A stretch of DNA of 64,000 bases from an uncultured virus (IMG/VR IMGVR_UViG_3300049259_000212) (IMGVR_UViG_3300049259_000212); one strand, 5' to 3'; positions 5,350 to 55,394 are shown, counted from the first letter of the stretch. Made by a program: numbers and translations. The notes: generated from the sequence alone by a model not told the origin.

Positions 5350-5859
5350 ATGGCCACGAAGCTGACAAAGAACCAAGAGGCTTTCCTTCGCGATCTTGGT
5401 GTCGGGCGCGAAGTCTCGTTGACGTTCGCTCAACGGGCCATGGTCGGCGTGCTTCGTCGCAAGGGTCTAATCCACACGCGGTCACTTGTTGGAAAGACGA
5501 ACGTGTGGGCACAGCCGACAGATGAAGGGCACATCCTCCTTCGTTTGACGGCTGCGAACCGCGCACGAAGCCACGCTACGGTGAAGACACCGGCTCAGCT
5601 CGATCGAGAGATCGCGGAATCCCTTTGCAAAGAGGGACGTCTCACAGCGGATACGATAACGGACGAGCAGATTCGCGAGCTGCGAGCCTATGAGCATAAG
5701 CTCGCCAGCACATCCACGGGTGTCGCGCGCGTCATCGCGCAAACCGCCGTCGCGGACGCCGACCTGGCGCTTTCTGGCCGCGGCGTCGCGAATGCGCGTA
5801 AGCGGAAAGCCCGCGCCCGCTGCGCCCAGATCCTCAATGCGCGCTCGAAAAGCGTTTGA
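5350..5859 (+). CDS. AQLDREI-motif protein
   Basis: Internal SHATVKTPAQLDREIAESL. Confidence 0.75.
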   Translation: MATKLTKNQEAFLRDLGVGREVSLTFAQRAMVGVLRRKGLIHTRSLVGKTNVWAQPTDEGHILLRLTAANRARSHATVKTPAQLDREIAESLCKEGRLTADTITDEQIRELRAYEHKLASTSTGVARVIAQTAVADADLALSGRGVANARKRKARARCAQILNARSKSV

Positions 5860-5871
5860 AAGACCAAGACC

Positions 5872-6423
5872 ATGACTAAGATCTCCGCACAGCTTGATCG
5901 CGAAATCGCCGAAGCCCTCGCGAACTACTCCAGCGACAAGCGTCCGCTCTACGGACACACGAGCGAAGCCACGGCGTACCTCGTGGACGACTACCCGTAC
6001 GGATACAACGTGCGCACGTCGATCCGGTACTGGCTGGAGCACAAGGCGAACAAGGGCTGGCGGTTCGTCTCGCAAACGCTCAACCCCAAGACGGGCCGGT
6101 GGAACAAGCCGAAAGCCTCGACGTACAGCGACTGGGGCGGCGCAATGTACATTGACGGCAAGGGTCACGTGCAGTGGGACGGTATCGGCCCCTACACGGA
6201 CGAGGCGAAGATCCTCGCGTTCGTCGAGACGTTCCCGGGCGCGGACATGCGTGAGTTGAAGAAGGTCGTGCCGGCGAAGAAGAAGCTGCTCAGCAAGCTG
6301 TTGAGCGGCGAGGCGTACTTCACGGTCAACAACCAGCGCCAAGCTCGGTCGGAAGCGGACAACGAGCGCAATAGCCGCGAGATGGATGTGTGGAACACCA
6401 TCGGAGATCGGATCGGCGCGTAG
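5872..6423 (+). CDS. AQLDREI-motif protein
   Basis: N-terminal MTKISAQLDREIAEAL followed by an aromatic-rich domain (DDYPYGY). Confidence 0.8.
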   Translation: MTKISAQLDREIAEALANYSSDKRPLYGHTSEATAYLVDDYPYGYNVRTSIRYWLEHKANKGWRFVSQTLNPKTGRWNKPKASTYSDWGGAMYIDGKGHVQWDGIGPYTDEAKILAFVETFPGADMRELKKVVPAKKKLLSKLLSGEAYFTVNNQRQARSEADNERNSREMDVWNTIGDRIGA

Positions 6424-6461
6424 TTGGCTGCGAGACTGCCTCTCACGTACTGTCGGACATC

Positions 6462-6752
6462 ATGACGAACCCCAAGCAACTCGACGCTGACATCGCACGA
6501 GCGCTTTCGAGTCACCGCGGTCTCAAGCTGTCCAACAACCAAAAGGACATGCTTCGGGCGGCTCTCGACACTGGCAGGATGTCGAGCGGGCGATACGGTT
6601 GGAACGAGATGCACGTGCGTGCGCTCGAAAAGAAGGGGCTCGTCTCACTCGTCTCCTCGGCCACCTGGGACAAGACATGGAAGCTGACGGATCTCGGCAG
6701 TGAGGTAGCGAAGTTATTGCACGCCGAATGGCTCAGCGCACATGGCGACTGA
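6462..6752 (+). CDS. AQLDREI-motif protein with wHTH-like domain
   Basis: MTNPKQLDADIARAL...ALEKKGLV...WKLTDLG. Confidence 0.7.
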   Translation: MTNPKQLDADIARALSSHRGLKLSNNQKDMLRAALDTGRMSSGRYGWNEMHVRALEKKGLVSLVSSATWDKTWKLTDLGSEVAKLLHAEWLSAHGD

Positions 6753-6796
6753 GTAGGAAGTCGCGTTCGGCACGCGACGGCTGTAAGCTCTCCCGC

Positions 6797-7456
6797 ATGA
6801 AACGCGTCTATTCATTCGCGGAAGAGGGTAAGTGGACCTCGGGGGCCGACTCCACGATGCTCATGGGCGAGTGGCAGGCCTGGGTCGACGGCGACGGTCA
6901 TTGGAAGGTCCGCGGTCCCGATCGCGACAACGAAGCACACTACGCGGACTGCGACATCGAGTTGACTGCGGCCGAAGATGAGGAGGCCGGCAATTCGGCA
7001 GCGCGTCGCAAGATCCGCGCGCGACGTGCGAAGGAAACGGCACGGGCGTACATCAAGTCGATGCTGCGATCTGCGCCGTCGAGACATGCGCGCGAGAAAT
7101 CGCCGGCTCAGCTTCAACGAGAGATCGATGAGGTCCTCCGCAAGCCCCGCCGCACGCACTCGACGATTTCAACGTCGTCTGCGTACGAGCAAGCGAAAGC
7201 CGAATCGGAGCGCTTGGACAAGGAAGCATCGGAAGCGGGCGAGGCGTTGCGGGCGTTCCCGCGCGGGCCCACAGGGATCACTCCTGACTCTATTCGCGCG
7301 ACACCCGCGTTCCGCGAAGCAAAGGCCCGCTACGACAAAGCATTCGCAAAGCAGCGTGCTTTCAACGGTCCTTTCGTGAAGCGGTTCGCGAAAGAGCTTC
7401 GCGAAGAGCGTCGTCTCCGCGATCAAGCACGGCAGCGTCGATCACCGGCAACTTGA
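6797..7456 (+). CDS. AQLDREI-motif protein
   Basis: Internal RHAREKSPAQLQREIDEVL. Confidence 0.75.
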   Translation: MKRVYSFAEEGKWTSGADSTMLMGEWQAWVDGDGHWKVRGPDRDNEAHYADCDIELTAAEDEEAGNSAARRKIRARRAKETARAYIKSMLRSAPSRHAREKSPAQLQREIDEVLRKPRRTHSTISTSSAYEQAKAESERLDKEASEAGEALRAFPRGPTGITPDSIRATPAFREAKARYDKAFAKQRAFNGPFVKRFAKELREERRLRDQARQRRSPAT

Positions 7457-7487
7457 CCCCTGCGGTCGGCGGCGCGATGCTCGGCGC

Positions 7488-8081
7488 ATGCCCAAGCGCC
7501 CCGCCTTCCGCAAAAACGATCGCGTGACGCTTTCGTCGATCAGGCGATCGATCCCGAGCTACGAGGGTAAGCCAGCGGTCCTTCGCGACACCGTCCTGAC
7601 GGTCTCGCACATCACGGGCACGGGCACCGCGCGCAATCCGTTTCACGTCTCCGTCACGGACGGCGAATACTTCTGGCATCTTGAACCGGATGACATCGTG
7701 AAGGCAGAACCTTCTGCCCACAGCGTGAAGAAGCAGCTCGACGAGTGGCTCGACACGAACGGCTATCCAACGTCCCACGCGCGAAAGGTTCGCGAAGCCC
7801 CGACCGAGCGACGGGTGTTCGCTGCGCACGAGCGCGATCACCACATCACGACGTCAGGACGACGCGATCTCACGGCGAGCCAATTCGCTTTGCCGCCTGG
7901 ACCCGAAGAGAAGCGCCGTGGGATCAAGGGACGCTTCCCGATCGATACGCTGGCTCGCGCGCGTAACGCACTCGCGCGAGCAGCGCAGCAGCGCAAGAGC
8001 GGACATCTCAGCGCGAGTCAGCTCGCAACCGTGAAGCGCAAGGTTCACGCAGCGTGGCCTTCCGTCGTAGAGAGTCCGTAA
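7488..8081 (+). CDS. Modular basic protein with degenerate motif and DUF6582-like C-terminus
   Basis: AHSVKKQLDEWL, SHARK linker; RRDLTASQFALP...RFPIDTLARARNALARAAQ resembles DUF6582 (recognition from memory). Confidence 0.7.
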   Translation: MPKRPAFRKNDRVTLSSIRRSIPSYEGKPAVLRDTVLTVSHITGTGTARNPFHVSVTDGEYFWHLEPDDIVKAEPSAHSVKKQLDEWLDTNGYPTSHARKVREAPTERRVFAAHERDHHITTSGRRDLTASQFALPPGPEEKRRGIKGRFPIDTLARARNALARAAQQRKSGHLSASQLATVKRKVHAAWPSVVESP

Positions 8082-8171
8082 GGAGCTCTCCGCGTGTAGT
8101 GCTGGAGCTCTCCGCAGTGCAGCACTGACGATAGCTAGCGAACGGTTATACGCTTGTGCGAGCATCCCCCA

Positions 8172-8705
8172 ATGGCTCGCACGCGACTCACGACAGCCGC
8201 TCAAATCGACAACGCGCTGACCCACGCGGACTACGATCGCCGAACAGCGCGCAAGAGGCTCGAAGACGGCGATCACGTTCAGCACGTCGGCGAGTGGCTA
8301 GAGAAGAGGCTGCTCGCAGCGAACGCGGAAGCGAGCTATCCCGCGATCGTTGACTGGGTTGCGAGAGAGCAGCGCGTTGTCGAGTCCGGCGTGAAACGCC
8401 AAACGCACGCGGAGAATCGTCAGGGTGTTCGACGCAAGCTTCCGAAGTACACGTCGTCAGGTAAGTCCTTGGAGGTCAGTCGGCGGATGGTCGCCAAAGG
8501 CGAAAATCACGAAGTCCGGTCCGTGATCCACGACTTGGAGTTCCTCATCAAAAACCTGCGCAGCCAGCTTCCTTACGCAGGACGAGGATCGTCGGCAGAG
8601 GCGCTTGTTGCACGAATCGACAAGCTCACCAAAGAGCTGATGACGTGGCTCGAATTCGTTCCGCTCACGTACGCTCAACGTGTGATCGACGATATCTATC
8701 GCTGA
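8172..8705 (+). CDS. Hypothetical protein with degenerate AQLDREI motif
   Basis: MARTRLTTAAQIDNAL. Confidence 0.65.
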   Translation: MARTRLTTAAQIDNALTHADYDRRTARKRLEDGDHVQHVGEWLEKRLLAANAEASYPAIVDWVAREQRVVESGVKRQTHAENRQGVRRKLPKYTSSGKSLEVSRRMVAKGENHEVRSVIHDLEFLIKNLRSQLPYAGRGSSAEALVARIDKLTKELMTWLEFVPLTYAQRVIDDIYR

Positions 8706-8784
8706 GGGACCGGGATCTGCACACCCAGCGTCGGTAGCGGTTCATCGATTTTCGAGCTTCCAGCGGGTGTTAAAACGGCAGGAC

Positions 8785-9882
8785 ATGCAGACCGCTCACG
8801 CCAGTCACCCGCCCCTCCTCATGACCCTCTCGCTCGGTGCCGATCAGCCCAATCGGATTGCGCCGAAGAAGCCAACGAAGATCGTCGTGCATGCGAACGA
8901 GGCGTTCGACATTCACAGTCTTCGTATCTCAAGCAAGGGAACGCCGGGCGGCGCCGCGGACTGGATCGTCAATGACATCCTTGTCGATGACCAATCCCAG
9001 CTTCGTCACAAGGATCTGCCCGGGTGGTTGTTCGGTATCGGCATGGGCAACGCGCCACGATCCGTGTCGAGCTTCTCATTTGACGGTCTTGACGTGGTCG
9101 AGCAAGGTCACGAGTTCGCTATCGTCGTGACGTACGTCGGTCCCAACCCGGAGGGCGTGCCTTTCTTCGGCGCCGTGCTGGGCTACCGGCCGTACGAGCG
9201 TCCGATGCAGCTGCCGATCATCTCGAAGGAGAAATTCATGGGCGCTGACATGCGCATCATCAGCGCGCGCCTTCACACGGCATTTCGTATGGAGCGCCTC
9301 GAGATCGACCAAGCGACTGATTGGGTTGTCTGCGATCTCAAAATGAATGGACGATCGCAGTTCGCTCAGTCGGGAGACGTGCCCGGCGACGTGTTCGGGA
9401 CCGATGCGATCGACAACTTCGTCTCGTTCGAGACGTGCCTCGCCGGCAATGCGATCGACATCATCGTGATGTACATCGGCAAGAGTCCTGAAGGTGCGAT
9501 CTTCAGTGCACGCTATGAGGGCTCGGTCGTTTCGCTCGACGCGCAGAATCCGCCCGAGCTCAAAGCCATCGTGGAGGGCGAGACGATCGTGGGAACGCAG
9601 TCGCCCCGCCGCCGCTCGCAATCCGAAGGCAACACCGTGAAGGCTTGGCGTCCGACGGATCTCAAGTCCGTCGATCTCGTCGAGCAGTGCTCGACGATGC
9701 TCGTGAGCACCAAGCTCCAGCACCAGCCGGGAACCGTGATCGAGGCCCGCCTCATGAGCCCGCCCGACGCGCGCATGGATCGTGTGGTGGGGTTCTTCGT
9801 GGTCGCCCCCGACGGAAAGCGCGCGGCCATCGCCGCGGAGTCCGTCGAGACGTTGATGCAGTTGGACAAGATCGCTCCCTAG
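8785..9882 (+). CDS. Protein with two copies of the beta-rich repeated domain
   Basis: ADWIVNDILV...DLPG...VTYVGPNPEG and TDWVVCDLKMNGRSQFAQSGDVPG...VMYIGKSPEG. Confidence 0.8.
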   Translation: MQTAHASHPPLLMTLSLGADQPNRIAPKKPTKIVVHANEAFDIHSLRISSKGTPGGAADWIVNDILVDDQSQLRHKDLPGWLFGIGMGNAPRSVSSFSFDGLDVVEQGHEFAIVVTYVGPNPEGVPFFGAVLGYRPYERPMQLPIISKEKFMGADMRIISARLHTAFRMERLEIDQATDWVVCDLKMNGRSQFAQSGDVPGDVFGTDAIDNFVSFETCLAGNAIDIIVMYIGKSPEGAIFSARYEGSVVSLDAQNPPELKAIVEGETIVGTQSPRRRSQSEGNTVKAWRPTDLKSVDLVEQCSTMLVSTKLQHQPGTVIEARLMSPPDARMDRVVGFFVVAPDGKRAAIAAESVETLMQLDKIAP

Positions 9883-9945
9883 TCGAACCATCTCACCTAC
9901 AGCCAGAAGATCGCTTCTCGACGTCGCTTCCATTAGCCTGATCTG

Positions 9946-10212
9946 GTGAGCGACGATGTCAACCCAGACACGCACCGCGATCCTCGTCCGACCGTGCGTC
10001 TTGACGCGGCAGATCTGAAGCCCTCGTGGCCGATCGTCATCGCGTCCATGGAGCAACTCACAAGTTGGTCCGTACTCGCGCTTCGCTTGGGCACGCTCGC
10101 ACTGATTCAAGAGTGCGTTCGTGAGCTAGCGCAGCGCGATGCCAAGCCCGAGGCGATTGTTCGGCTTCGCGATCTCGTGGAAGCGCTCGCGCATATGCCC
10201 CTCTCAGTCTAA
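9946..10212 (+). CDS. Hypothetical protein
   Basis: 88-aa ORF. Confidence 0.5.
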   Translation: MSDDVNPDTHRDPRPTVRLDAADLKPSWPIVIASMEQLTSWSVLALRLGTLALIQECVRELAQRDAKPEAIVRLRDLVEALAHMPLSV

Positions 10213-10394
10213 ACCGTGGGCATCCGACGGACATCTGCGAGTCCGATCTCTGCGCGGTAGATTAGCGCGTCGTGCTCAGCATCTGAGGCCTGAGCGAAGC
10301 TTGTCAGTGACTCAAGCACGATCACAGTGTCGCGCTGGATCAGGCGCCAGAACCAGCCGCGGTCCTCATCCTTGAAGATTTCGAACCGCCACAT
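10209..10394 (-). CDS. YegP/DUF1508-like small protein
   Basis: MWRFEIFKDEDRGWFWRL pattern. Confidence 0.6.
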   Translation of the reverse strand: MWRFEIFKDEDRGWFWRLIQRDTVIVLESLTSFAQASDAEHDALIYRAEIGLADVRRMPTV

Positions 10395-10478
10395 CCACTC
10401 ATAGTCTGTCGGTCCTCGAAAAACGGCGAGTTTTCGACCACTGGTGAAACGTGAGGATCGTCAGCTACGATGCTGACT

Positions 10479-11873
10479 ATGAATCCCCGCATCCTTCGCG
10501 AGTACGACATTCGCGGCAACGCCGAAACTGATCTGACAGATGCGGAGGTGCGGGCCATCGGCAGGGCGATCGCGGAGGCAGCGCAGAGTGGGACCGTTGT
10601 CGTTGGCCGTGATTGCCGACTCAGCTCGCCACGTATCTTCAACGCGCTCACCGCGGGCTTGCGCGCGCTCACCGATGTGATCGATATCGGAATCGTCCCG
10701 TCTCCCGTGGCTTACTTCGCCCAGCAGCACTTCCGGTCCGCTGCCACAGTCATGATCACAGGCAGTCACAATCCGGGCGAGGACAATGGCTTCAAGATCA
10801 TGATCGGTGACGAGACTCTTCACGGCGAGGCGATCAAGCGTCTCGGTCAACGGCCGCAAGAGCTGGTCGTTCACAACGTGGCGCCATGGTGGGGTCAAGC
10901 AGCGCGTAGTGTTAGCGAAGCCTATATCGCTAAGGCCGTATCGTCGCTACAGCTTGGGACGCGGAGGCTCAAGGTGGTTGTCGATGCCGGAAACGGCGCG
11001 GGAGGCCCAACAGCGGTGGCGCTTTACACCGAGCTCGGCTTTGATGTCGTTCCGCTGTACTGCACATTCGACGGCAATTTTCCGAATCACCATCCGGATC
11101 CAACGCAGCCGGAGAACTTGTTCGCGTTGACCAATGCCGTGCTCGAGCTTGGAGCGGACTTGGGAATCGCATTCGACGGCGATGCGGATCGAATCGGCGC
11201 CGTGGATGACACGGGCCGAATCGTTTGGGGGGATCAACTCATGATCCTCTTCGGTAAGGCGATCCTAGAAGAGGTTCCCGACGCGACGTTCGTGGCTGAG
11301 GTGAAGTGCAGCCAGGTCCTGTATGACGCGCTGCCGAGCTGCGAGATGTGGAAGGTTGGCCACTCGCTGATCAAGGAACGCCTGCGTGTCACGGGTGCAC
11401 AGCTCGCGGGCGAGATGTCCGGACACCTGTTCTTTGCTCACCGCTGGATGGGCTTCGATGACGGCATCTACGCAGGCGCGAGGCTTCTTGAGCTACTCTC
11501 TCGGAGCGATCGAGCATTCTCCGATCTGGTCTCGGAAATTCCCGCCGCGATCAACACACCGGAGATTCGTGTTCCCTGCGACGACGACCAAAAGTTCGAG
11601 ATTGTCACCCGCGTGACAGCGAGCCTGCGCGACGATCCGACTGTCGAAGATGTCGTCACGATCGATGGTGCGCGGGCTCGGTTTGCGGATGGCTGGGGGC
11701 TCGTGCGCGCGTCGAACACGCAAGCGGCGCTTGTCGTGCGCTGCGAGGCGAAGGATCGCCTGGCGTTGATGAGGATCCAGAAGACGATCAACACGCACGT
11801 CTCTGTCGCCAGAGGATACCGTCGTATGGATCTGGAAGTCTCTCCGCCGGATCACGCCATCAAGGCGCAGTAA
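10479..11873 (+). CDS. Phosphomannomutase/phosphoglucomutase (alpha-D-phosphohexomutase family)
   Basis: YDIRG, TGSHNP phosphoserine loop, FDGDADR metal loop, GEMSGH, VRASNT. Confidence 0.95.
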   Translation: MNPRILREYDIRGNAETDLTDAEVRAIGRAIAEAAQSGTVVVGRDCRLSSPRIFNALTAGLRALTDVIDIGIVPSPVAYFAQQHFRSAATVMITGSHNPGEDNGFKIMIGDETLHGEAIKRLGQRPQELVVHNVAPWWGQAARSVSEAYIAKAVSSLQLGTRRLKVVVDAGNGAGGPTAVALYTELGFDVVPLYCTFDGNFPNHHPDPTQPENLFALTNAVLELGADLGIAFDGDADRIGAVDDTGRIVWGDQLMILFGKAILEEVPDATFVAEVKCSQVLYDALPSCEMWKVGHSLIKERLRVTGAQLAGEMSGHLFFAHRWMGFDDGIYAGARLLELLSRSDRAFSDLVSEIPAAINTPEIRVPCDDDQKFEIVTRVTASLRDDPTVEDVVTIDGARARFADGWGLVRASNTQAALVVRCEAKDRLALMRIQKTINTHVSVARGYRRMDLEVSPPDHAIKAQ

Positions 11874-12277
11874 CGATGAGTCGAAGCAAACCTTCGCCCA
11901 AAGGACGGCGATGTTCATGCGGTAATCGTGTGCTCAGGCGCGATGCACCGTCGCATGACCTGTGTCACCCGTCGAAGGCGCAGAAGCTCCGTAGTCAGCG
12001 CAAAACGCGGTCAGACGATCGGCCAATCAACACGCGGCCCTGACGTTTCATCGCCTCGATCCGAAGTCGTTTCGCCTCCGCGAGGTGCTCACGAATGCGA
12101 CGGAGAATGTCTTCGTTGTGCTGGCTCAGCGGCATGAGAAACGATTGTAGGCCGTGCGCTAGATCAAGAGCTTCGAGTTCCGCAAGTTTTTGGAGGCGGC
12201 GGAACACTGTGCTTTCGCGACGAAAAACAGAATGCAGAAAATTCGCGATCCTAAAATGCGATCGCTACACTGGTTTC

Positions 12278-12439
12278 ATGTCGTGTAAATGCGCTGGTAA
12301 GGCCTCTGTCAATGTCTCTTGTCGCGCGACGTGCAAGCGTCGTTGCCCCACCATCCGCCGCTGCAAGTTCAAGGCAGCCAAGTGGACCTGCCCGTGGAGC
12401 CCCTGCGCGGGCGCCAACGTCCTCACCTGCTGCCGCTAA
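12278..12439 (+). CDS. Small basic Cys-rich peptide (53 aa, 10 Cys)
   Basis: MSCKCAGKASVNVSCRATCKRRCPTIRRCKFKAAKWTCPWSPCAGANVLTCCR. Confidence 0.6.
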   Translation: MSCKCAGKASVNVSCRATCKRRCPTIRRCKFKAAKWTCPWSPCAGANVLTCCR

Positions 12440-12449
12440 GTCGCTAGTC

Positions 12450-12615
12450 GCCCACGAGGCGACATAGGGCTACCACGCGACAGCGTGCGCATGATGCGCG
12501 TGCTCGGAAGTCCGTGTTGCCCGACGGCGAACAGCTGTCTGGACATTCACATACGCCAAAGCCCGGTCGGTAAGACCGGGCTCTGACGCGGCCACCGTTG
12601 GATGACCTCGTGGGC
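12450..12615. ncRNA. Candidate structured non-coding RNA
   Basis: Closing stem gcccacgagg/cctcgtgggc, second stem cgcgacag/ctgacgcg, internal hairpins including agcccggtc-ggtaa-gaccgggct. Confidence 0.45.
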
Positions 12616-12680
12616 TACGCCCGCTGAGACATTACCACGGAGGTTGTAACGCGGAGGTGCGAACACCTACCGCGGCGTAC

Positions 12681-12800
12681 TCATTTGTCGTTTTCGTTGC
12701 TGCACTTGCGCTGCGCAGCCTCTCTGCGCGCGTAGTGTACGCCGATGAGCGTCATCACGACGCCGACGATCGCCAACAGGATCAGGAACACGTGATTCAT
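12681..12800 (-). CDS. Small single-TM peptide (39 aa)
   Basis: MNHVFLILLAIVGVVMTLIGVHYARRE...; hand-translated. Confidence 0.45.
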   Translation of the reverse strand: MNHVFLILLAIVGVVMTLIGVHYARREAAQRKCSNENDK

Positions 12801-12859
12801 TCGGCAAGCCCCTTCGCGATAAATTCGCGACGCGCGATCGACGGTGTTAGCGTGATCGC

Positions 12860-13015: not shown

Positions 13016-13060
13016 CGCGATGTCGCGCGGGCATCGCCCGCTGAGGTAGTCTGAGCCTTC

Positions 13061-13357: not shown

Positions 13358-13385
13358 TCACACGTTCGCCGTAGTAGGATGCGGC

Positions 13386-14180
13386 ATGGCTTCGGCGCAG
13401 GACATTCGCGAGTTCAAGGGTTTTCTTCGACAGGCTTCCGATCGTCAGGTGCAAGGCATCTACGACAAGGAGAGCCGGGCCGGACGTGACGAGTACGCGG
13501 AGCTTACTGTCGAAGAAGCTGAGCGCCGCGGTATTGATCTCGAGCGACACGGCCATGCGCGCAAGAAAAGTTCCGCGCAGCTTGATCGCGAGATTACTCA
13601 AGCGTTGAGCAAGCCGGGTGGCCGAGTACACGCGGCGAAATCGACTTCGAATGGCTCGATGACGATTGGCAACGGTCAATATCGTGTGCTCGTCGCTAAA
13701 GATCCTCATCGCGGAGGCTATTCGGCGAAGCTGATCAGCTCGGGCATCGGAACGATCATGGAGCCGAATGGCACGTCCGCTGCTAAGGCTCTGTCTCGAC
13801 TCGTCAAAGAATTGACTCAGTCTGGAGGCGACGATCGGAAGCTCGCGAAGGAAATCGTCGCGAAGAGCGGGGGTATTTCTCACGCGACAGCAAAGCGCGC
13901 TGTGCCGGGCATTTCCAAGTGGGACACGTTCGCTGGCGGTACGAGCGCCGCACCGGGAAAGTACAGCTACAGCATCAGCGTTCCTGAAGGGAAATACTAC
14001 ATCTCCCCATTCACGCGAGGAGGTGGTCGTCATGCAGGCTACTACCTCAAGTTCGCGACCAATGGAAACGGGCGTCCGCGCGGCGCTCATTCCGGCCTTT
14101 GGCACGAGCTGGGAATTCAGCGCAGCCCCGCGAACGCTGCGAATGCGGCGGCGAAGCACTACGCGAAGGGCTTCGAGTGA
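13386..14180 (+). CDS. AQLDREI-motif multi-module protein
   Basis: GHARKKSSAQLDREITQAL plus VHAAKS and SHATAK linkers. Confidence 0.8.
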   Translation: MASAQDIREFKGFLRQASDRQVQGIYDKESRAGRDEYAELTVEEAERRGIDLERHGHARKKSSAQLDREITQALSKPGGRVHAAKSTSNGSMTIGNGQYRVLVAKDPHRGGYSAKLISSGIGTIMEPNGTSAAKALSRLVKELTQSGGDDRKLAKEIVAKSGGISHATAKRAVPGISKWDTFAGGTSAAPGKYSYSISVPEGKYYISPFTRGGGRHAGYYLKFATNGNGRPRGAHSGLWHELGIQRSPANAANAAAKHYAKGFE

Positions 14181-47345: not shown

Positions 47346-49528
47346 CGATCGATCGTGTTGAAATCTCGTCTCTTCGAGACAAGCACGACTCGTCGCCTCG
47401 TCGCTCCATTGTCGCATGGGCCAAGTTTATTGAGGCCTTCGCGAAGCCTCGTCTGACGGCCTGTTTAGTCGCGAACTGCAAGCACAACGAGTGCGTGCAC
47501 AAAAACGGTAAGGCCTGGTCACCGGCGGTGTATCCGGCCGGATTACCGCGCCAAAAGCAGCACGTCGAAGCCATTGGTCTGTTGCCGATCGATCTTGACC
47601 ACATGTCAGAGGAGCAACTTGTCGCTTCTCTAGGAGGGATCTCCGCTTATCAGCGCGTCATTCACTCCAGTCATAGTGATCGTCCCTCAGGGAGCAAGAT
47701 CTGTACATGTGGAAGTGAGCTGGGGGCGATGCACGGGCAGCACTGCCCGTCGCGTGTTGATCGTTGCGTACGCGTGATCTTGACGTTGTCGCGTCCCGTG
47801 ACTGGTGCGGAGTGGCCGCGGTTCTGGCCAACCGCGATGGCGTTTCTAAAACAGCCCGCCGACCCGTCAACGTGCGACGCCAACAGATTGTATTACATGC
47901 CCAGTCGGCCAAAGGACGCCGACTCGTATCTCTACGAGACGCATGACGGCATCTCGCTCGACGTCGAAGCGATCATGGCGATGGCTCCGCCGGAAGCGGA
48001 GTCCGTTGCTGAACAGCTTCAGGTCGATGCCGCCGGCATCGTCGAGCCGGGTCAGCGCCATGCGATGCTCAAGTCGATCGCGGGCGCACTGCGCTTCCGC
48101 GGCGCGGGATTCGAAGAAATTGAAGCCGCCCTTCAAGGCGCGAACAAGGCTCGCTGCAATCCACCCAAGTCGGAAGCCGAAGTTCGCGCCATCGCGCGTT
48201 GGGCTTCCGAGCAGCCGATGGCAACACGCGCTCGCGCTGGTGGTGGTGGCGGCGGCGGCGCTGATGGCGACGAAGAGCCCGATTTCATCCGTGAGCCCAA
48301 GGGCAACATCATCAACTCGCAACACAACATTGAAGTCGCGATTCGCAAGCTTCGCGTGTTGCTGCGCTACGACGAATTTTCCGGCGATGAAATCGTTGAA
48401 GGCCTTACGGGATACGGGCCTCGGTTTGACGATCCGGCGACGAACCATCTGCGCCTAAAGATTGATTCGACGTTTCGCTTTCTTCCAGGACGTGAACTAT
48501 TTCGGGATGTCACGTCGAACATGGCTCGCAGTAACCGTTTCCATCCGGTCCGTGATTATTTGGGAGCGCTTGCGTGGGATCAGCAGCCGCGTATTGAGCG
48601 TTGGTTGATCGACTACGCGGGTGCGCCGGACACGCCGTACGTGCGTGCGGTGTCACGCATTGTTCTCGTCGCGGCGTGTCGTCGCATCCGAAAGCCCGGC
48701 GCAAAATATGACGAAATGCTGATTCTTGAATCGCAGCAAGGTACCGATAAGTCGACGGCGCTACGTACGCTGGCTGCGGATGACGAATGGTTCACTGATG
48801 ATCTTCCGCTTGGCGGAGACGCTCGTCGATTCATGGAATCGACAGCGGGTAAATGGATTGTCGAGGCTGGCGAACTCAAAGGCATGGGCAAGTCAGACAT
48901 CAACTCGCTCAAGGCCTGTTTATCTCGCCAGCGCGATGAAGCGCGTATGGCGTACGGACATAAGAACTCTCGAGTGCCACGACAGTTCGTGATCATTGGA
49001 ACCACGAACGAGAAGGACAGTTACTTGCGCGACGGCACGGGCAATCGTCGCTTCTGGCCTGTGCGTATCCAGCGTTTCGATCTCGCGAGACTGCGCGCCG
49101 ATCGTGATCAGCTGTGGGCAGAAGCGTCCGAAGCCGAGGCGCTTGGAGAGTCCATTCGACTGGATCCAACTCTTTACAGCCAGGCCGCTGTCGAACAAGA
49201 AGCGCGTATGCGAGGCGACGATCCACTCGTCGACGTTCTCCAACGAGCTCTCGGCAATCGAACGGGAAAGTTGCGTGTGTCCGATGCGTACCTCATCTGC
49301 GGACTGGAGGCCGGCAAGGTCAACCAGGATCAAATGGATCGCTTCGGCCGCGCCATCCGTGACTTGGGATGGGAACGTCTACGCCGACGCTTTGACGGCG
49401 TGCTCGAGTACGCCTACGTGAAGGGCACCGAAGAGGAGCAGAAGATCGAGCTGGTCGTCGAGTACGACTTGACTCAGCGCAGTGTGCGCATCGACGTCGA
49501 GAAACCCGGAACAACCGCAGCGAACTAG
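47342..49528 (+). CDS. Primase-helicase: primase domain, PriCT-like domain, VirE/VapE helicase, C-terminal wHTH
   Basis: IDLD and HSSHS primase motifs; GQRH...NPP.S..EV..I PriCT; HPVRDYL, QGTDKST, IGTTN, TGNRRFWPV, DQLWAEA. Confidence 0.88.
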   Translation: MTIDRVEISSLRDKHDSSPRRSIVAWAKFIEAFAKPRLTACLVANCKHNECVHKNGKAWSPAVYPAGLPRQKQHVEAIGLLPIDLDHMSEEQLVASLGGISAYQRVIHSSHSDRPSGSKICTCGSELGAMHGQHCPSRVDRCVRVILTLSRPVTGAEWPRFWPTAMAFLKQPADPSTCDANRLYYMPSRPKDADSYLYETHDGISLDVEAIMAMAPPEAESVAEQLQVDAAGIVEPGQRHAMLKSIAGALRFRGAGFEEIEAALQGANKARCNPPKSEAEVRAIARWASEQPMATRARAGGGGGGGADGDEEPDFIREPKGNIINSQHNIEVAIRKLRVLLRYDEFSGDEIVEGLTGYGPRFDDPATNHLRLKIDSTFRFLPGRELFRDVTSNMARSNRFHPVRDYLGALAWDQQPRIERWLIDYAGAPDTPYVRAVSRIVLVAACRRIRKPGAKYDEMLILESQQGTDKSTALRTLAADDEWFTDDLPLGGDARRFMESTAGKWIVEAGELKGMGKSDINSLKACLSRQRDEARMAYGHKNSRVPRQFVIIGTTNEKDSYLRDGTGNRRFWPVRIQRFDLARLRADRDQLWAEASEAEALGESIRLDPTLYSQAAVEQEARMRGDDPLVDVLQRALGNRTGKLRVSDAYLICGLEAGKVNQDQMDRFGRAIRDLGWERLRRRFDGVLEYAYVKGTEEEQKIELVVEYDLTQRSVRIDVEKPGTTAAN

Positions 49529-49541
49529 AAAGGATCGACAG

Positions 49542-50216
49542 ATGGAAACTCGTGAGATGAAGATTCAGTCGGAACAAAACCCCGTAACTAACTACCTCGC
49601 GTCCCTTGTGTGGGACGAGGTGCCTCGGCTTGATCGCTGGCTCATCGATCTCGCGGGTGCCGAGGACACAGCCGCCGTGCGAAAGGCTTCGCGTCTGATC
49701 CTCATTGCGGCTGTTCGCCGTGCTCGCTCGCCAGGCTGTCACTTTGATCAGATGCCTATCCTGGTCGGCCCGCAGGGTTGCGGAAAAAGTCGCGCCCTCC
49801 AGCTGCTTGCTGTGGATGATCGTTGGTTCACCGATCAACCGCTTTCATCGGTTGCGCGGAGCCTCATCGAAACGACGCAGGGAAAATGGATCGTGGAAGC
49901 CTCCGAGATTGGGAAAGCCTCCGAGATTGGGGCTGATCTGAAGGGCGTGCTTTCCCGCTCCGTGAGCGAGGCACGCATGCCTTATCAGACGGAGCGTTTG
50001 CGCGTCCCGCACGCGTTTGTCGTCGTTGGAACGACAGAGGACAGTGACTTCCTGACGGAGCCAACCTCCGCACGACGCTTCCGTCCAATCGTGCGTGTCA
50101 AGCGCTTCGATCTGGCGAGACTCGCCGAACTCCGCGATCAGTTGTGGGCAGAAGCGGCAGTCGCAGAGATCTCGGGGGAGTCAATCGCTCTTGAAGCGAC
50201 CGACGCTCCCGCGTAA
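49542..50216 (+). CDS. Stand-alone VirE/VapE helicase-domain paralogue
   Basis: NPVTNYL, RLDRWLID.AGAEDT, GPQGCGKS, VGTT, RRF, DQLWAEA. Confidence 0.85.
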   Translation: METREMKIQSEQNPVTNYLASLVWDEVPRLDRWLIDLAGAEDTAAVRKASRLILIAAVRRARSPGCHFDQMPILVGPQGCGKSRALQLLAVDDRWFTDQPLSSVARSLIETTQGKWIVEASEIGKASEIGADLKGVLSRSVSEARMPYQTERLRVPHAFVVVGTTEDSDFLTEPTSARRFRPIVRVKRFDLARLAELRDQLWAEAAVAEISGESIALEATDAPA

Positions 50217-50231: not shown

Positions 50232-51791
50232 ATGACTGCCACCGCGAAAAAGAGAGCACGCCGTTCCGTTAGCATCTCTGGCAAAACGTATGGCCGTTTG
50301 CGGCACACGGTTCAAGGAAGCATACCGGCGTTCGTCGATGGCATTGTGCTGACGATGCTCGAGGATGAAACCATCTTGTCGCGGGTGACCGCGCGCTGTC
50401 TGGCCCGTCAGGGCCTAACACCGTAATGACGGTTCTGGTGATCGCGCTCATGGGCGCAGCCGTTATTGGAATCGAAGCTCTTCGATGGACGATGCGCCCA
50501 GAGCAACGTCGTCTACGGATGCTCAAGAAGATTGGAGGCCGTCCGTGAAGGTCTGTGGAACGACAGGATCTCGTGACTACTTGAAGTTGCACGGCAATGA
50601 CTGGAAGCGATACTGGCGACCGCGGCTTCCGCCGATAGGGTGGGAACGCTCCAGAGGTCCACGTCCGACAGCACAGGACATTGACGATCTGATCGGACAC
50701 GTGGAGTAGCATGTCGTTCATGATGCGAATCGAAGCGGCACAACGTTCGCCGTTGGATCAGCTCGCACTGGACTACGCCTGTTCAGGGGAGCCGTCTCAG
50801 CCGTCGCTGGATTTTTGTCAGCACACGATCGGAGTCCCCCAAGACGATGACACGGTAGCGAAGCGCTTAGGCGTTGCCGTCTCGACAGTGCGCGCATGGC
50901 GCGAGCTCGGCCGACGAGCCCGTTGGAGTTGCGATGAGCGCTGAAAAAGCACTGCGCGACGCTGCTGCTAAGTTTCACGAGATTCTGTCCGCGATCGCCG
51001 CGGATCGATTTCTAGTCAACTTCACCGGCCCCGCCCAGATGCTCAAGGCGCTTCGTGCAAATCATCGATCGCCTGATCAGCTGGACGAGATCGCCGCATC
51101 TGGATTCGAGCTGTGCGTAGAAGCGTTGGCTGCCATGGGAGCTTCCGACGTTTCGATTCACAACTGCGGAACCAACGCTCTCGGCGAGAACCATGACTAG
51201 CTTTCGTGGCGGCGGGCTCCATCCCCTCTATCTCCGCGCACCGGGCAGTGTTTCACGCGCTGTCACGATTCCGTGTCCGGCGTGTCGTGCAGAAATCGGA
51301 AAGCCGTGCCGCTTCGACGACGGATCGCCTGTCGTGCACGACGCTCGTGAATCGGTCGCATTCAACGGAAAGCGCATTTGGCTATGAGTGACGATCTTGA
51401 TGTTACTCGGATCGAGTTTCGTATGATCGTCAACGGTCGGTTGAAGACGGCGATCTTCGTGCGCCCCGAAAAGATCGAAGATCTGTTGCACGCCGAGAAA
51501 TGTACTCTTGGAGAGTGGCTGCGCGCTCTACGTGACACCCCTGACATCCCTGAAGTACTTACCTAGGAGAGATCGATGGCAAAGAAAGCCGCATTGAAAA
51601 TCGCTGGTTCGATTGGTCCGCGTGAGGCACTGCTCGCTACCGTAGCTGGCACGATCGCGGCTGGAATGGTCCAAGCGCCAAGCCCCTCCATATCGACCCC
51701 ATCGACGCTGGCGAATGCGGCGATCGACATCGCCGAGCTGATCCTCTTGCAAGCGGGAATCGTCCCGGACGACTCGCCGAACGCCGCATAG
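50232..51791 (+). other. Run of short hypothetical ORFs (50232-50426, 50711-50944, 50934-51200, 51193-51387, 51384-51566, 51576-51791)
   Basis: Coupled ORFs; 50711 has an HTH (VAKRLGVAVSTVRAW); 51193 has a CPAC..C..H zinc finger. Confidence 0.55.
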
Positions 51792-51867: not shown

Positions 51868-52626
51868 GTGAAAGACGTGCCAGCTGATTCGCTGCCTCCC
51901 TTGTCGGAGAACGATAAGAGAGAGGTGTGTGATCTGCATGGTTGGGTCGGTCGACGCGTGTACCAGCGTGATCGTCACGACTTGTGCGAAGCACCTCGCG
52001 ATGAGTATTCCGACGAGGACCTCGAAGAAGAGCCTGAAGAACTCCACGATGTGGAACCTTCTGTTGAAGTAGAGCCTATCGAAGATCCACCACGGTGGAG
52101 TCGCGCGGAAGCGAAACGACAGGGCATTCCCGCGAAGAAGACCATCGCGGTTCGTCGCATCACGCAAGCGGAGCTCGCTGTTGGGCGTCTTGAGCTGCAA
52201 GCTCTCGGTGCTGACGAGCCCTACGATCGTCCCAAGACGCGCGGTGACTGCGCGCGCGTGCCGCGGCCTTGCCCGTACGTCGCATGCAAGCATTCGCTCT
52301 ATCTTGACGTGAGCGAGACTGGATCGATCATCCTCAACTTCCCGCACCTGGATCCTGGCGAGATGCCAGCGAATCAGAGCTGCGCGTTGGATCTTGCTGA
52401 CCAGGGAACGATGACGTTGGAAGAGATCGCTGTCGTCACGAACCTGACGCGTGAGCGCATTCGTCAGGTGGAGCTCAAGGCGCTGAATCGACGTGCACGC
52501 GAAACAGCGGTAAAGATGGGACTCGGACCGGATGACGCCGTTGCAGCAGGCACGCGTCGCCGTGTGGGACCTGGCGAGCCCGACTCCGAGGGCGCTGTGC
52601 CGAACGATGAGAGCGGCGAAGATTAG
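51868..52626 (+). CDS. Sigma70 region-4 HTH DNA-binding protein with Cys-rich domain
   Basis: RPKTRGDC...PRPCPYVACKHSLYLDV...SCALD...MTLEEIAVVTNLTRERIRQVELKAL; start uncertain. Confidence 0.8.
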   Translation: MKDVPADSLPPLSENDKREVCDLHGWVGRRVYQRDRHDLCEAPRDEYSDEDLEEEPEELHDVEPSVEVEPIEDPPRWSRAEAKRQGIPAKKTIAVRRITQAELAVGRLELQALGADEPYDRPKTRGDCARVPRPCPYVACKHSLYLDVSETGSIILNFPHLDPGEMPANQSCALDLADQGTMTLEEIAVVTNLTRERIRQVELKALNRRARETAVKMGLGPDDAVAAGTRRRVGPGEPDSEGAVPNDESGED

Positions 52627-52856: not shown

Positions 52857-53405
52857 CTAATTCAGTCGGACGGCTTCGAGTCCGCGTTCAAGCTGCATGA
52901 GCTTCTCTCGGTGCTCGCGATCTTGGCGCTCTTTCACTTCACCGCGAAGCGCAGGCCTGACCAGATCGTTCACCTGGGGGATATACCTACGTTCTCTTGC
53001 GAGGTTTTCCTCGATCTCGCCCGCGACGAGCTCGCGCCCGGTCGCGGTGAGACGGAGCATTGTGCCGGCTGGTTCGACTAGTCCTAGCGCGAGGGTTCGC
53101 TTGATGTGTGGAGCATCCACCGCGTCGAACCTGTTCGGAAACTCGGGGCCGTACTTCAGGACGAGCTGCGTGAGAGCGAACAGGTTCGTGCCCGTCAGCG
53201 CCATCTTTTTTGGCGGGGCCTTCTTCGGGTAGCGGAACCCGAGAGCGTGTGCGACCTCGAAGCGCTCTGCCGGAAGGCCGGCTGCGAGCACCGCATCGAT
53301 CTCGGCGTCGAGCTGCTCGCGGGTCTTGAGATCGGGTTTCTTCGAGAGACGCGAGAGAGCTTGGCGGATTTCTTGGTCGAGCTGAGCGTCGCGTTTCTTC
53401 GGCAT
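52857..53405 (-). CDS. AQLDREI-motif protein (two copies of the motif)
   Basis: MPKKRDAQLDQEIRQAL...KTREQLDAEIDAVL. Confidence 0.8.
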   Translation of the reverse strand: MPKKRDAQLDQEIRQALSRLSKKPDLKTREQLDAEIDAVLAAGLPAERFEVAHALGFRYPKKAPPKKMALTGTNLFALTQLVLKYGPEFPNRFDAVDAPHIKRTLALGLVEPAGTMLRLTATGRELVAGEIEENLARERRYIPQVNDLVRPALRGEVKERQDREHREKLMQLERGLEAVRLN

Positions 53406-53412
53406 GGCGTTC

Positions 53413-54027
53413 CTATTGGGCGAGCTGACTGGTCTCGTTCAGATACTTCTGAAGGCTGGCGAGTTCATGGAACTGCACGCCCGTCGGTGCGTAGGTGTCG
53501 CTGCCTCTACCGTTGTTACGACCGCGCCCCATCTGTTGCATGACCCGATATCGGCCACGTCCGTTCGAGCCGCGCAGCTCGTCCCACACGGCCAGACCCG
53601 GATGTGAAAGACGAGGAAGTACCCAGACGCGAAGCGTTGCTTTGCCGTTGCGGTCTGCTTCCAGCGTGGCCCAGTGGGGCTTGAGCGGAGCCGCCTTGTG
53701 GAGTTCCTTGCGCACGTCGCCGGGGAGGCCGCCTTTGCGCGCGACCTTACGCGCGGCTGCAATGAGACGAGAAACATCGTCGGCGTTGACGATCGAGACT
53801 TCGCCTAACACGAGCCAGCCCGCCGCACGCGCTTCCTCGATCGCGGCGGCGGTACGTGCGTTCGGCGATCCTTTAATCGCATTGCCGAGCGCCCAGGTGA
53901 GCGTCCCGTCGGAGTGGAGCAGGACCACCTTGTCGTCATACGTCTTGGCGCGGCCGATGACGCCGTGCTTGGCGCCGTTGAGCGCTGCTTTGATCTCCGC
54001 GTCGAGCTGCGCGGCAGTCTTCGCCAT
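53413..54027 (-). CDS. AQLDREI-motif protein
   Basis: MAKTAAQLDAEIKAAL. Confidence 0.8.
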   Translation of the reverse strand: MAKTAAQLDAEIKAALNGAKHGVIGRAKTYDDKVVLLHSDGTLTWALGNAIKGSPNARTAAAIEEARAAGWLVLGEVSIVNADDVSRLIAAARKVARKGGLPGDVRKELHKAAPLKPHWATLEADRNGKATLRVWVLPRLSHPGLAVWDELRGSNGRGRYRVMQQMGRGRNNGRGSDTYAPTGVQFHELASLQKYLNETSQLAQ

Positions 54028-54030
54028 GAC

Positions 54031-54672
54031 CTACTGCTTCCCAGGAATGCGGCTCGGCTTCCCCGGCTTCTTGCCGCGATCGATCGCTTCCGAGCTGTAC
54101 GGCTTGAGGGCTGCCGTCACGAGCTTCAAGTCCGTCGTCGTCGGTTTCTTGCGCGCGAGCTCCTTGCGGAACTCGATCTCGCGCTTGCACGCAATGTCGT
54201 GCGCCTTGTCGTAGCTCATGCCGCCGTACATCACGAGGTTGCGCTCGACGATCTCGTGAAAGATCGTCGCGATGCGATCGAGCGAGTGCATCGCATCGTC
54301 GATCCAGATCTCCTTCGCTGGCACGTAGCTCGGGTAGGCCGCTTCGTTGCCGCCCTGCGTGAAGTCGATGTCGATGTCGTTGCGGACCTTCTCGCCGGAG
54401 ACGAGATAGACGGGCAGACCTGTCACGTAGCCCATCTTCTTGATGCGCGGCGACTTCAACGTCATGGAGGAAGCGATCTCGCGATCGAGCTGGGAAGGAG
54501 AGCGTTTCGTCGCGTGCGACGGCTTACGCGGCTTGGTGTCCCACGACGCGATGTTGTACGGATCGGCGCGGCGTGTCTCATACGTCGATGCAAGCGAGGC
54601 GTCGAGGCGTCTTCCGAGGGCGCGATCGCGCTCCCGTTTGAGTTGAGCGGCAGTCTTAGGCTTGGTCGGCAT
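54031..54672 (-). CDS. AQLDREI-motif protein with metallopeptidase-like HExxE domain
   Basis: KTAAQLKRE...SHATKRSPSQLDREIASSM...EIWID...IFHEIVER...AH. Confidence 0.8.
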   Translation of the reverse strand: MPTKPKTAAQLKRERDRALGRRLDASLASTYETRRADPYNIASWDTKPRKPSHATKRSPSQLDREIASSMTLKSPRIKKMGYVTGLPVYLVSGEKVRNDIDIDFTQGGNEAAYPSYVPAKEIWIDDAMHSLDRIATIFHEIVERNLVMYGGMSYDKAHDIACKREIEFRKELARKKPTTTDLKLVTAALKPYSSEAIDRGKKPGKPSRIPGKQ

Positions 54673-54686
54673 GGTTGAAACCTACC

Positions 54687-55394
54687 TCAGTCTTCCAGGT
54701 TGAAGAGGTAGGGCCGACGAGCGACCTTCCGAGGCTTGATGAGGTACTTGAAGTCGGGGCGCTTGAGATCCCGGTACTCCTTCGCGGCCTCGTTCGCATC
54801 TTTCTTGTTCGAGAAGTGCTCGTGGAGCGTGCGCTCGCGTTTGGTGATCGTGTTCAGCTCATAGAGGTCGTAGACCGTGTGCTTGTCGTTCGAGCGCTTC
54901 GTCGCGTGAACACTGCGGCCTCCGCCGAGACGGCTCAGATACTGAAAGTACATGCGCGCCGTCGATCCCGGAGCGCCCTTACTCTTGCGATAGCCTGCCT
55001 GCTTCGCGACCTCGGCGATGCGATTGCCTTGGCTCATCGAGACCGACGCGTGGTAGTCGCGCGAGAAGTCGATGCCCTCGGATTCGAGGAGACGCTTCGC
55101 CTCTTGCGGCGTCATCTTCTTCTTGCGGGCATGCGCTGCCGGCGTCGCGATCTTCTCGCGCTTCTTCCTCCAACGAAACGAACCGCCGGGTTCGTTCTCT
55201 CGGTACTCGCGCAAGCGTTTGACGATATCTGTCCGCGTTTCCTCTGCGGTGAGATCTTCCCACCCATGGCCGTAGCCGTAGTTCCCCTGCACGACGTAGA
55301 GGTCTTTCGTCTTCCGCGCGCGGACAGCATGCGAATGCCGCGAGGCGAGTGCCGCTTTGATTTCACGGTCCAATTGTGCTGGGGACTTGGGCAT
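54687..55394 (-). CDS. AQLDREI-motif multi-module protein
   Basis: MPKSPAQLDREIKAAL; SHAVRARK, AHARKKK and VHATKRS linkers. Confidence 0.8.
   Translation of the reverse strand: MPKSPAQLDREIKAALASRHSHAVRARKTKDLYVVQGNYGYGHGWEDLTAEETRTDIVKRLREYRENEPGGSFRWRKKREKIATPAAHARKKKMTPQEAKRLLESEGIDFSRDYHASVSMSQGNRIAEVAKQAGYRKSKGAPGSTARMYFQYLSRLGGGRSVHATKRSNDKHTVYDLYELNTITKRERTLHEHFSNKKDANEAAKEYRDLKRPDFKYLIKPRKVARRPYLFNLED

Follow-up and report, generated by a model that had tools for sequence, protein, structure and literature searches.

A short conserved peptide tag on otherwise unrelated basic proteins of uncultivated phages, with a possible docking function

Introduction

The closest described counterpart of the peptide reported here is the capsid targeting sequence (CTS) of phage T4. 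According to two reports on the T4 internal proteins (PMC3012670; bioRxiv 10.1101/2021.01.19.427310), these proteins are diverse and highly basic, have only the approximately 10-residue MKTYQEFIAE in common and undergo a single cut beside it, and the CTS loads the internal proteins, or any fusion to it, into the head. We describe a peptide tag of the form K-x-x-A-Q-L-D-x-E-I-x-x-A-L in DNA of an uncultured virus (IMG/VR IMGVR_UViG_3300049259_000212). The whole stretch analysed, 64,000 nucleotides in length, is called the window, and the proteins that bear the tag are called carriers. The tag is similar to the CTS in that a short peptide is the sole common feature of diverse, small and highly basic phage proteins. 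The T4 internal proteins are non-essential. The CTS stands strictly at the N-terminus, has about 10 residues and is taken off by one cut; the present tag, in contrast, comprises 15-20 residues, is N-terminal in 63 of 253 copies and also occurs internally, C-terminally and repeated. The likeness in sequence is restricted to a gapped K-T..Q..I-A-E.

Bacterial microcompartments have encapsulation peptides, which bind the shell and, according to PMC4594438, have a hydrophobic pattern in common but 'lack sequence conservation'. Their anatomy of a helix with a flexible, poorly conserved linker is also that predicted by modelling for the tag, which differs in being almost invariant, in standing between domains as well, and in belonging to phage; no shell or encapsulin family was found by Pfam in 72 window open reading frames (ORFs). 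Polyvalent multi-domain proteins of phages and conjugative elements, which Iyer et al. reportedly described in 2017, are said to be combinatorial mosaics of small domains and are thought to act early in infection. These proteins are very large and are not known to have a connector peptide in common, whereas the carriers are small and the connector is their conserved part. Docking motifs for cellular hubs, such as the sliding clamp, are likewise short peptides in disordered regions of unrelated proteins, at the ends or internally. In the bacterial sliding-clamp-binding motif the fourth and fifth residues must be hydrophobic; the corresponding positions of the tag are R (83%) or A (11%) and E (98%), and this identification was rejected. 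A resemblance to a Pup-like helix was also dropped, no such Pfam family having been found in any carrier scanned. Targeting or docking peptides that phage proteins have in common are of a known kind, but the position independence of the present tag and its location at joints of domain shuffling are unusual.

Results

Ten strong copies of the tag are present in nine window ORFs. In a six-frame regular-expression scan QL[DQ]x[ED]I gave ten matches, all in frame with ORFs that the initial annotation had named, at positions 5596, 5890, 6477, 7109 and 13578 on the plus strand and 53298, 53367, 53992, 54475 and 55359 on the minus strand. When the residues were permuted within 102 window ORFs (19,971 amino acids, aa), 1000 shuffles gave a mean of 0.025 such matches and a maximum of 1, and the 14-residue form of the motif, observed nine times, had an expectation of 0.001. 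A hidden Markov model (HMM) made from the ten copies and run on all 1295 stop-to-stop frames scored these copies at 28.8-43.2 bits, the next matches at 9.3 and 6.8 bits, and the remainder at 3.2 bits or less. The 9.3-bit match is weak and forms a second copy in the ORF at 54031-54672, at its N-terminus; that of 6.8 bits lies at 51063-51101. The large excess over shuffling and the clear gap in score show that the shared tag, first noticed in an initial annotation of the window, is real. The tagged ORFs, referred to in the text by their first coordinate, and one further tag-like site are as follows, with isoelectric point (pI) and HMM score where these apply.

5350..5859, plus strand: tagged ORF (169 aa, pI 10.9; equals protein P0002; 43.2 bits) with a winged-helix-like stretch (by eye), H-A-T box 5572-5580, internal tag core KTPAQLDREIAESL 5584-5625 and C-terminal part
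5872..6423, plus strand: tagged ORF (183 aa; 33.4 bits) with N-terminal tag core KISAQLDREIAEAL 5878-5919
6462..6752, plus strand: tagged ORF (96 aa; 28.8 bits) with N-terminal variant tag TNPKQLDADIARAL 6465-6506
6797..7456, plus strand: tagged ORF (219 aa, gene call behind P0003; 39.7 bits) with N-domain, H-A-R box 7085-7093, internal tag KSPAQLQREIDEVL 7097-7138, H-S-T box 7157-7165 and C-domain
7713..7754, plus strand: putative decayed tag SAHSVKKQLDEWLD inside ORF 7488-8081, at a domain joint
13386..14180, plus strand: tagged ORF (264 aa; 42.7 bits) with, in order, three-helix N-domain, H-A-R box 13554-13562, tag KSSAQLDREITQAL 13566-13607, H-A-A box 13629-13637, middle domain, H-A-T box 13881-13889 and beta-rich C-domain
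52857..53405, minus strand: tagged ORF (182 aa; 30.3 and 32.2 bits) with tandem N-terminal tags 53355-53396 and 53286-53327 ahead of a winged-helix-like body, and a long helix at the C-terminus
53413..54027, minus strand: tagged ORF (204 aa; 29.8 bits) with N-terminal tag KTAAQLDAEIKAAL 53980-54021
54031..54672, minus strand: tagged ORF (213 aa; 37.4 bits) with weak N-terminal copy 54613-54660 (9.3 bits), H-A-T box 54508-54516 and strong internal tag RSPSQLDREIASSM 54463-54504
54687..55394, minus strand: tagged ORF (235 aa, gene call behind P0014; 40.4 bits) with N-terminal tag KSPAQLDREIKAAL 55347-55388 and extra boxes H-A-R 55125-55133 and H-A-T 54900-54908

About 11 tagged proteins had been counted initially, two of them with weaker versions, and nine of these are borne out. 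The copy in ORF 7488 falls below noise in the HMM scan, but we take it for a decayed one, since the orthologue of this ORF in the metagenome locus L022 bears a canonical tag at the corresponding position; for a copy in ORF 8154/8172 there is no support. The tag is N-terminal in five of the nine carriers (5872, 6462, 52857 with its two copies, 53413 and 54687) and internal in four (5350, 6797, 13386 and 54031); N-terminal and internal copies had both been annotated, and in related phages the tag is found C-terminally too. The statement that the rest of the proteins is unrelated holds with one qualification. All-against-all blastp of the nine carriers confines the likeness to 14-44 residues around the tag, except for the first carrier (ORF 5353, at 5350..5859) and ORF 6462, which are 32% identical over 74 residues (E 0.003) and are both winged-helix-like by eye.

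The annotated synonymous codon differences between the copies are confirmed. At six conserved residues the pairwise identity between copies is 0.87, 1.00 and 0.50 for codon positions 1, 2 and 3, respectively, and the mean identity over 42 nucleotides is 0.59. Because the third positions are so much less conserved than the first two, selection is on the peptide and not on the DNA; a DNA-level repeat was dropped as an explanation since third codon positions vary among copies.

The tag spreads well beyond the window. With a profile of the window copies, 728 proteins had E <= 10 among 8000 candidates scored from 5.8 billion clusters. To the best 120 profile matches (E <= 1.6e-4) the contig of the window supplies only nine, exactly the nine tagged ORFs, and at this stringency the remaining approximately 96 kb of the contig hold no tag. 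An exhaustive HMMER search of 1.84 billion representatives gave 320 clusters (50% identity) at E <= 0.001, and the carriers among the 150 matches listed of these 320 clusters are 48-398 aa long. A DNA pattern for K-S/T-P-A-Q-L-D-R-E-I found 77 stretches on 71 metagenome contigs, some of them, such as those behind L006, L029, L034 and L035, 202-461 kb in length, and the HMM found 173 copies of at least 14 bits in these 77 loci and none between 12 and 14 bits. One metagenome contig of 9.5 kb carries eight copies, and the loci L022, L045, L046, L076 and L081 have many further genes in common with the window. The strict and looser DNA patterns gave no match in 185,579 prokaryotic species, each represented by one genome. 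An IMG/VR scan for A-Q-L-D-R-E-I-x-x-A-L yielded four loci, all with single copies of A-Q-L-D-S-E-I at 9.8-14.2 bits, which were rejected as chance matches; the Ser variants were matched because the degenerate Arg codon includes Ser. Given this spread in metagenomes and the absence from prokaryotic species genomes, the tag belongs to a set of uncultivated phages and not to cells or known prophages.

The tag is widespread and, in the catalogues searched, undescribed. No Pfam model lies over it in the nine window carriers, in 92 of the best 120 profile matches (left out were the window's nine, 12 marked DUF6496, four close relatives of ORF 52857 and three others) or in 118 representatives. Pfam matches fall on the bodies: DUF6496 in five proteins, sigma-70 region 4, GNAT and DUF1651 in one each, and weak single matches to SPOR (E 1.6e-4) and a ferric-reductase NAD-binding domain (E 4e-4). 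None of 18 carriers matched NCBIfam, and three of 66 family representatives matched PHROGs, on the bodies only, leaving the tag uncovered. A PDB profile search with the tag gave nothing significant (best E 0.46), PDB sequence searches with four bodies nothing at E < 0.6, Foldseek with both AlphaFold2 models described below nothing at E <= 0.001, and the ESM Atlas nothing usable for the tag region. A full-text literature search for tag peptide strings and for DUF6496 retrieved no description of either. The motif was not recognised when first annotated, and these searches agree: it coincides with no already characterised repeat in Pfam, NCBIfam or PHROGs, and was found neither in the PDB profile search nor in the full-text searches.

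A logo of 253 copies in 237 proteins, a set biased towards the best matches, gives the consensus R-H-H-A-T-K-K-S-P-A-Q-L-D-R-E-I-A-E-A-L-A. It includes P0186, a false positive with an L-L-Q-C-G-P-A-Q-L-G-R-E-I repeat, which was excluded from the pI count. The near-invariant positions are Q (98%), L (99%), E (98%), I (98%) and L (93%), with L, I and L spaced i, i+4 and i+8, and the columns after the tag are a mixture of G, S, P, R and K without consensus. N-terminal copies number 63 and C-terminal ones nine, the rest being internal. The shortest N-terminal form is M-x-K-S/T-P-A-Q-L..., and since this minimal form has no H-A-T lead-in, the lead-in is dispensable. A second element, H-A/S-T in the context G-R-R-S/A-H-A-T-K/R, often follows the tag. 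Outside the core it was observed 164 times against 13.1 +/- 3.7 in 200 shuffles, a 12-fold enrichment; the next such box lies 5-14 residues past the helix in 70 of 97 cases, and solitary boxes are also found at domain starts. Some proteins have two to four tags: ORF 52857 and its orthologues have two and P0005 has up to four matched stretches.

Modelling presents the tag as a lone helix of middling confidence between disordered linkers, beside confident domains. In the AlphaFold2 model of ORF 52857 (7-row alignment; mean predicted local distance difference test score, pLDDT, 81) the tags form separate helices, residues 2-18 and 29-41, on a disordered arm (block pLDDT 56-74) before a winged-helix-like body (pLDDT 83-94), for which the best fold matches are of MarR type at E 0.08 or weaker. 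The model of ORF 13386 (12 rows; mean pLDDT 71.5) resembles a string of beads. Its three-helix N-domain (pLDDT 90-95) is followed by the tag helix at 63-75, which has segments below 50 on both sides, then by a middle domain that is poorly modelled, a disordered part with an H-A-T box, and a confident beta-rich C-domain. A tag-tag complex prediction (four copies of a 32-residue region, 82-row alignment) scored 0.05 against a mark of 0.42, which, as controls were not included, speaks neither for nor against binding.

With the tag masked, the 77 metagenome loci yield 69 families for their 137 tagged ORFs, and in the tagged families with at least three members 64 of 73 members retain the tag. The two sides of the tag were compared in the 155 proteins that have 40 or more residues to each side of it. 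Of the 496 related pairs, 222 have the N side alone in common, 156 the C side alone and 113 both, and five match crosswise; the sharing is thus one-sided in 378 pairs. Judged by these sequence relations, the tag marks joints where domains were shuffled. P0136, for instance, consists of the N-domain of ORF 6797 (74% identity) and the C-domain of ORF 13386, and P0215 of the N-part of ORF 54031 and the C-domain of ORF 6797, while the two halves of ORF 6797 also occur singly, the N-domain in P0022 and the C-domain, which matches phrog_7560, in P0036. ORF 7488 is likewise a domain mosaic, with an N-domain common to L022 and L068 and a C-domain common to L076. The conserved globular body of ORF 5872, which has no family, is retained along with the tag by orthologues in L010, L022 and L046 (63-70% identity), ORF 53413 has an orthologue in L008 (63%), and the small body of ORF 6462 recurs at the C-terminus of P0064 (69% over 77 aa).

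The carriers are basic. The window carriers have a pI of 9.1-10.9 (median 10.0) versus a median of 7.1 in 55 other ORFs (Mann-Whitney p = 0.0007), and in the wider set of 237 carriers the pI is above 9 in 85%. The few bodies that are recognisable, as far as family and fold likeness can tell, lean to nucleic-acid binding: the body of ORF 52857 is winged-helix-like, as are those of ORFs 5353 and 6462 by eye, P0202 from another contig is a sigma-70 region 4 protein whose C-terminal end consists of two tags, one body is ParB-like, and ORF 13386 has a weak PUR-repeat-like match.

Two further observations concern carrier bodies. Ten proteins (P0011, P0013, P0016, P0018, P0020, P0065, P0071, P0082, P0093 and P0185) have a common architecture of N-terminal DUF6496, winged-helix-like stretch (by eye), tag, and a conserved C-terminal domain ending in Y-A-E-I-F-E. 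The body of ORF 54031 (residues about 75-210) is well conserved, at 70-78% in L021 and L081, and contains F-H-E-I-V-E, which is faintly like a metallopeptidase motif; the second His is lacking and there is no Pfam, NCBIfam or PDB match.

Genes near the tags were surveyed in 149 non-tagged ORFs, one per family, of at least 150 aa and at most 7 kb from a tag. PHROGs matched 32 of them: nine of nucleic-acid metabolism, two sigma factors, two endolysins, two of integration or excision, two auxiliary, three other and ten of unknown class, and two of structural type, both of the tail-fibre kind, one belonging to a family whose longest member is rich in collagen-like Gly-X-Y repeats. No capsid, terminase or tail-tube protein was found among the 149 by PHROGs, and the sole portal-family match is a secondary match on a NUDIX ORF. 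The non-tagged family that lies near tags on the largest number of contigs is a beta-rich repeat family, which is represented in the window by one protein and its paralogues.

8767..9882, plus strand: untagged beta-rich internal-repeat protein, with paralogues at 17120-18406 and at 1-402 (minus strand)

This family has 15 members on nine contigs, none of them tagged. The contigs include several relatives of the window phage, and the loci richest in tags are without it. It has no Pfam or PHROG match, and the ESM Atlas offers only viral hypothetical look-alikes. By association only, the beta-rich protein is a candidate partner of the tag.

Two other gene types were noted beside tags. A kinase-like family of about 230 aa, with no Pfam match and no window homologue, is found near tags on seven contigs (L005:8512-9234, L006:12673-13368, L012:9081-9704, L023:13476-14150, L031:288-1727, L036:6124-6846 and L076:5624-6274). 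By eye its kinase-like motifs are Y-L-F-K-K-Y, V-L-V-V-E-R, G-L-D-S-x-x-x-N-V and I-A-F-I-D-T-E-R-W, and it could be relevant to the H-A-T boxes. A sigma-70 region 4 protein (E 2.9e-6), encoded divergently at 51868-52626 on the plus strand, adjoins the second tag cluster of the window, and sigma-like genes lie beside tagged genes at L006:10973-12043 and L007:6336-7418. None of the beta-rich, kinase-like and sigma-70 region 4 families comes near to being universal beside tags.

Discussion

The near-invariant helix, its occurrence at any position between flexible linkers, and its retention by orthologues while the flanks are exchanged suggest a short linear docking motif with one reader. We consider that the tag is a portable, position-independent docking peptide for one conserved partner, with a probability of about 0.5. 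The module, 15-20 residues long, opens with the basic stretch R-H-H-A-T-K-K, followed by an S/T-P helix cap and then by the helix proper, a charged and amphipathic segment of 12 residues (A-Q-L-D-R-E-I-A-E-A-L); the flexible linkers around it are rich in Gly, Ser, Pro, Arg and Lys. The carriers are small, highly basic proteins of large uncultivated phages, made up of interchangeable domains and with one to four tags in any position, and in our reading the helix would tether whichever domain is attached to a single conserved partner, so that domains could be swapped at the tag without loss of the connection. The binding itself, like the nature of the partner, we infer. The initial annotation had proposed a cargo-targeting system in which effectors are docked onto a capsid, a scaffold or an injection apparatus. 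This proposal is partly supported, by the portability of the tag, its conservation at the peptide level, the otherwise unrelated carriers and the modelled helix, and the named partners stand as candidates.

Several points weigh against docking. The strict motif is found in no cellular genome, giving no sign of a copied host docking motif. Only three positions of the 12-residue helix are hydrophobic, which makes for a small interface, and the flanking H-A-T boxes are unexplained by a simple docking helix. No non-tagged family lies near tags on more than nine of the 71 contigs (neighbourhoods <= 20 kb), and a merely tolerated linker would give the same shuffling pattern.

As to where the carriers would be brought, one possible though doubtful partner is the assembling phage head. 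In this special case of docking, drawn by analogy with T4, the tag would bind a scaffold or core, the basic proteins would be packaged together with the DNA and injected, and a head protease might cut at the tag. The carriers are small, diverse and basic like the T4 internal proteins and lie in plastic clusters, one of which ends 245 bases upstream of a GH25 lysin gene. The N-terminal forms M-x-K-T/S-P-A-Q-L-D-R-E-I-A-E resemble, with gaps, the T4 K-T..Q..I-A-E, and a Glu stands at the corresponding place, after I-A/x, in 68 of 125 distinct copies of the loci. However, I-x-E is found in only 3 of 10 window copies, the likeness needs gaps and could be due to chance, N-terminal copies are the minority (63/253), and proteins with two to four tags do not fit. 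The neighbours also point elsewhere, with two structural-type matches among 149 versus nine of nucleic-acid metabolism, two sigma factors and two lysins, and the window DNA polymerase is of family A, whereas that of T4 is of family B. A DNA- or transcription-linked hub within the infected cell is a partner that we regard as rather unlikely, and other partners as less likely still.

A partner-less inherited connector seems unlikely too. The tag would then be a helical spacer with basic flanks, possibly aiding nucleic-acid binding, and a tolerated joint for recombination. The mosaic pattern, with its high proportion of one-sided pairs (378 of 496), would be expected from such a spacer, and the basic carriers with several bodies like nucleic-acid binders (MarR-type, sigma-70 region 4, ParB-like, PUR-repeat-like) are in line with it. 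But linkers seldom hold five positions at 93-99% over 253 copies while the flanks change completely, and the tag is retained where nothing is joined, at 63 N-termini and nine C-termini. With an identity of 0.50 at codon position 3, furthermore, the DNA gives no hint of a recombination signal beyond the identity which the peptide imposes.

It is improbable that the tag and the H-A-T boxes are processing signals, the multi-domain carriers being small polyproteins cut at the joints so that fused and split genes give the same products. The enrichment of H-A/S-T outside the core (about 12-fold), its position past the helix (5-14 residues in 70/97) and its solitary occurrence at domain starts would suit this, as would the finding that the same domains are fused in one phage and otherwise combined elsewhere. 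The commonest N-terminal start lies six residues before Q (22/63), which is the T of the internal H-A-T, and the C-terminal forms end 3-11 residues past the helix, four of nine in or just after an Arg pair. On the other hand, no protease was found in the 72 window ORFs by Pfam or among the 149 neighbours by PHROGs, some N-terminal forms retain the full H-H-A-T-K-K lead-in, which is needless in a cleavage remnant, and a cleavage site leaves the conserved 12-residue helix unexplained unless the helix docks the protease.

That the tags bind each other, gathering basic proteins into an assembly or condensate, is very improbable: several tags in some proteins (ORF 52857 and its orthologues have two, P0005 up to four), their position within disordered linkers, the likeness of E-I-A-x-A-L to designed coiled-coil heptads, although only at E 0.46-10, and the condensation that microcompartment encapsulation peptides are reported to drive (PMC12339742) count in favour, but one and a half heptads are too short for a stable coiled coil, and the polar residues Q, D and E, being invariant, suggest a specific surface on a partner.

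Returning to the docking peptide, it is tempting to speculate, if only tentatively, that a clade of large phages of soil and sediment uses K-K-S-P-A-Q-L-D-R-E-I-A-E-A-L as a universal plug, which would deliver any small domain to a single conserved receptor and would serve as a recombination joint at the same time. The receptor would lie in the head interior, or in a compartment or DNA-bound hub of the infected cell, and the H-A-T boxes would possibly be regulatory. If this were true, it would amount to a natural tag-and-socket system that drives take-over or injected proteins to evolve combinatorially. Provided that the tag serves for docking at all, a 15-residue peptide would define a functional class of at least 320 'dark matter' protein clusters in uncultivated large phages, and the identity of the partner would reveal where all carriers act. 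Should the partner be the head, foreign proteins could be loaded into such phages by way of the tag, a portable handle of the kind that the T4 targeting sequence provided. The combination of a conserved connector with domain shuffling offers a testable example of phages assembling new small proteins from interchangeable parts.

Gene setting of the window

Pfam and PHROG scans show that the window comes from a large tailed phage, in which it forms the replication and accessory region. The contig carrying the window proteins in the protein database has 160,197 bases, and the guanine plus cytosine content across the window is 0.53-0.65. The scans found a family A DNA polymerase with an intein, an exonuclease, VapE-like primase-helicases, SNF2-type and Dda-like helicases, a DnaB/KaiC-like ATPase, a C5 cytosine methylase, endonuclease VII, proteins like Pam3 gp33 and gp34, and GH25 lysin and phosphomannomutase genes. 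Megablast of window positions 4000-15000 gave no match among 50,697 deposited phage records, and tblastn of the 36-residue tag region against deposited (cultured) phage records none at E <= 10; the HerA-like ATPase of the window has one match among deposited phage records, to an uncultured phage, at 38% identity.

Some individual genes deserve mention. The polymerase gene, at 36717-39947 on the plus strand, has Pfam DNA_pol_A at residues 249-585 and Intein_splicing and LAGLIDADG_3 at residues 618-853. The intein thus bears a LAGLIDADG homing-endonuclease domain, and another LAGLIDADG/intein ORF lies at L019:5866-7374. Among the tagged genes, at 10470-11873 on the plus strand, stands a complete four-domain phosphoglucomutase/phosphomannomutase gene, which is probably an auxiliary gene of sugar metabolism and has a 70% identical copy in L028. 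Immediately upstream of the first tag cluster, 4036-4707 on the plus strand encodes a predicted multi-pass membrane protein without family match, which adjoins tagged genes on six contigs and has 59-69% identity in the four loci matched by tblastn. The VapE-like primase-helicase domain occurs in two overlapping ORFs on the plus strand, 47342-49528 and 49482-50216; the latter is a shorter version of the core of the former, and the pair could be a duplication or a frameshifted gene.

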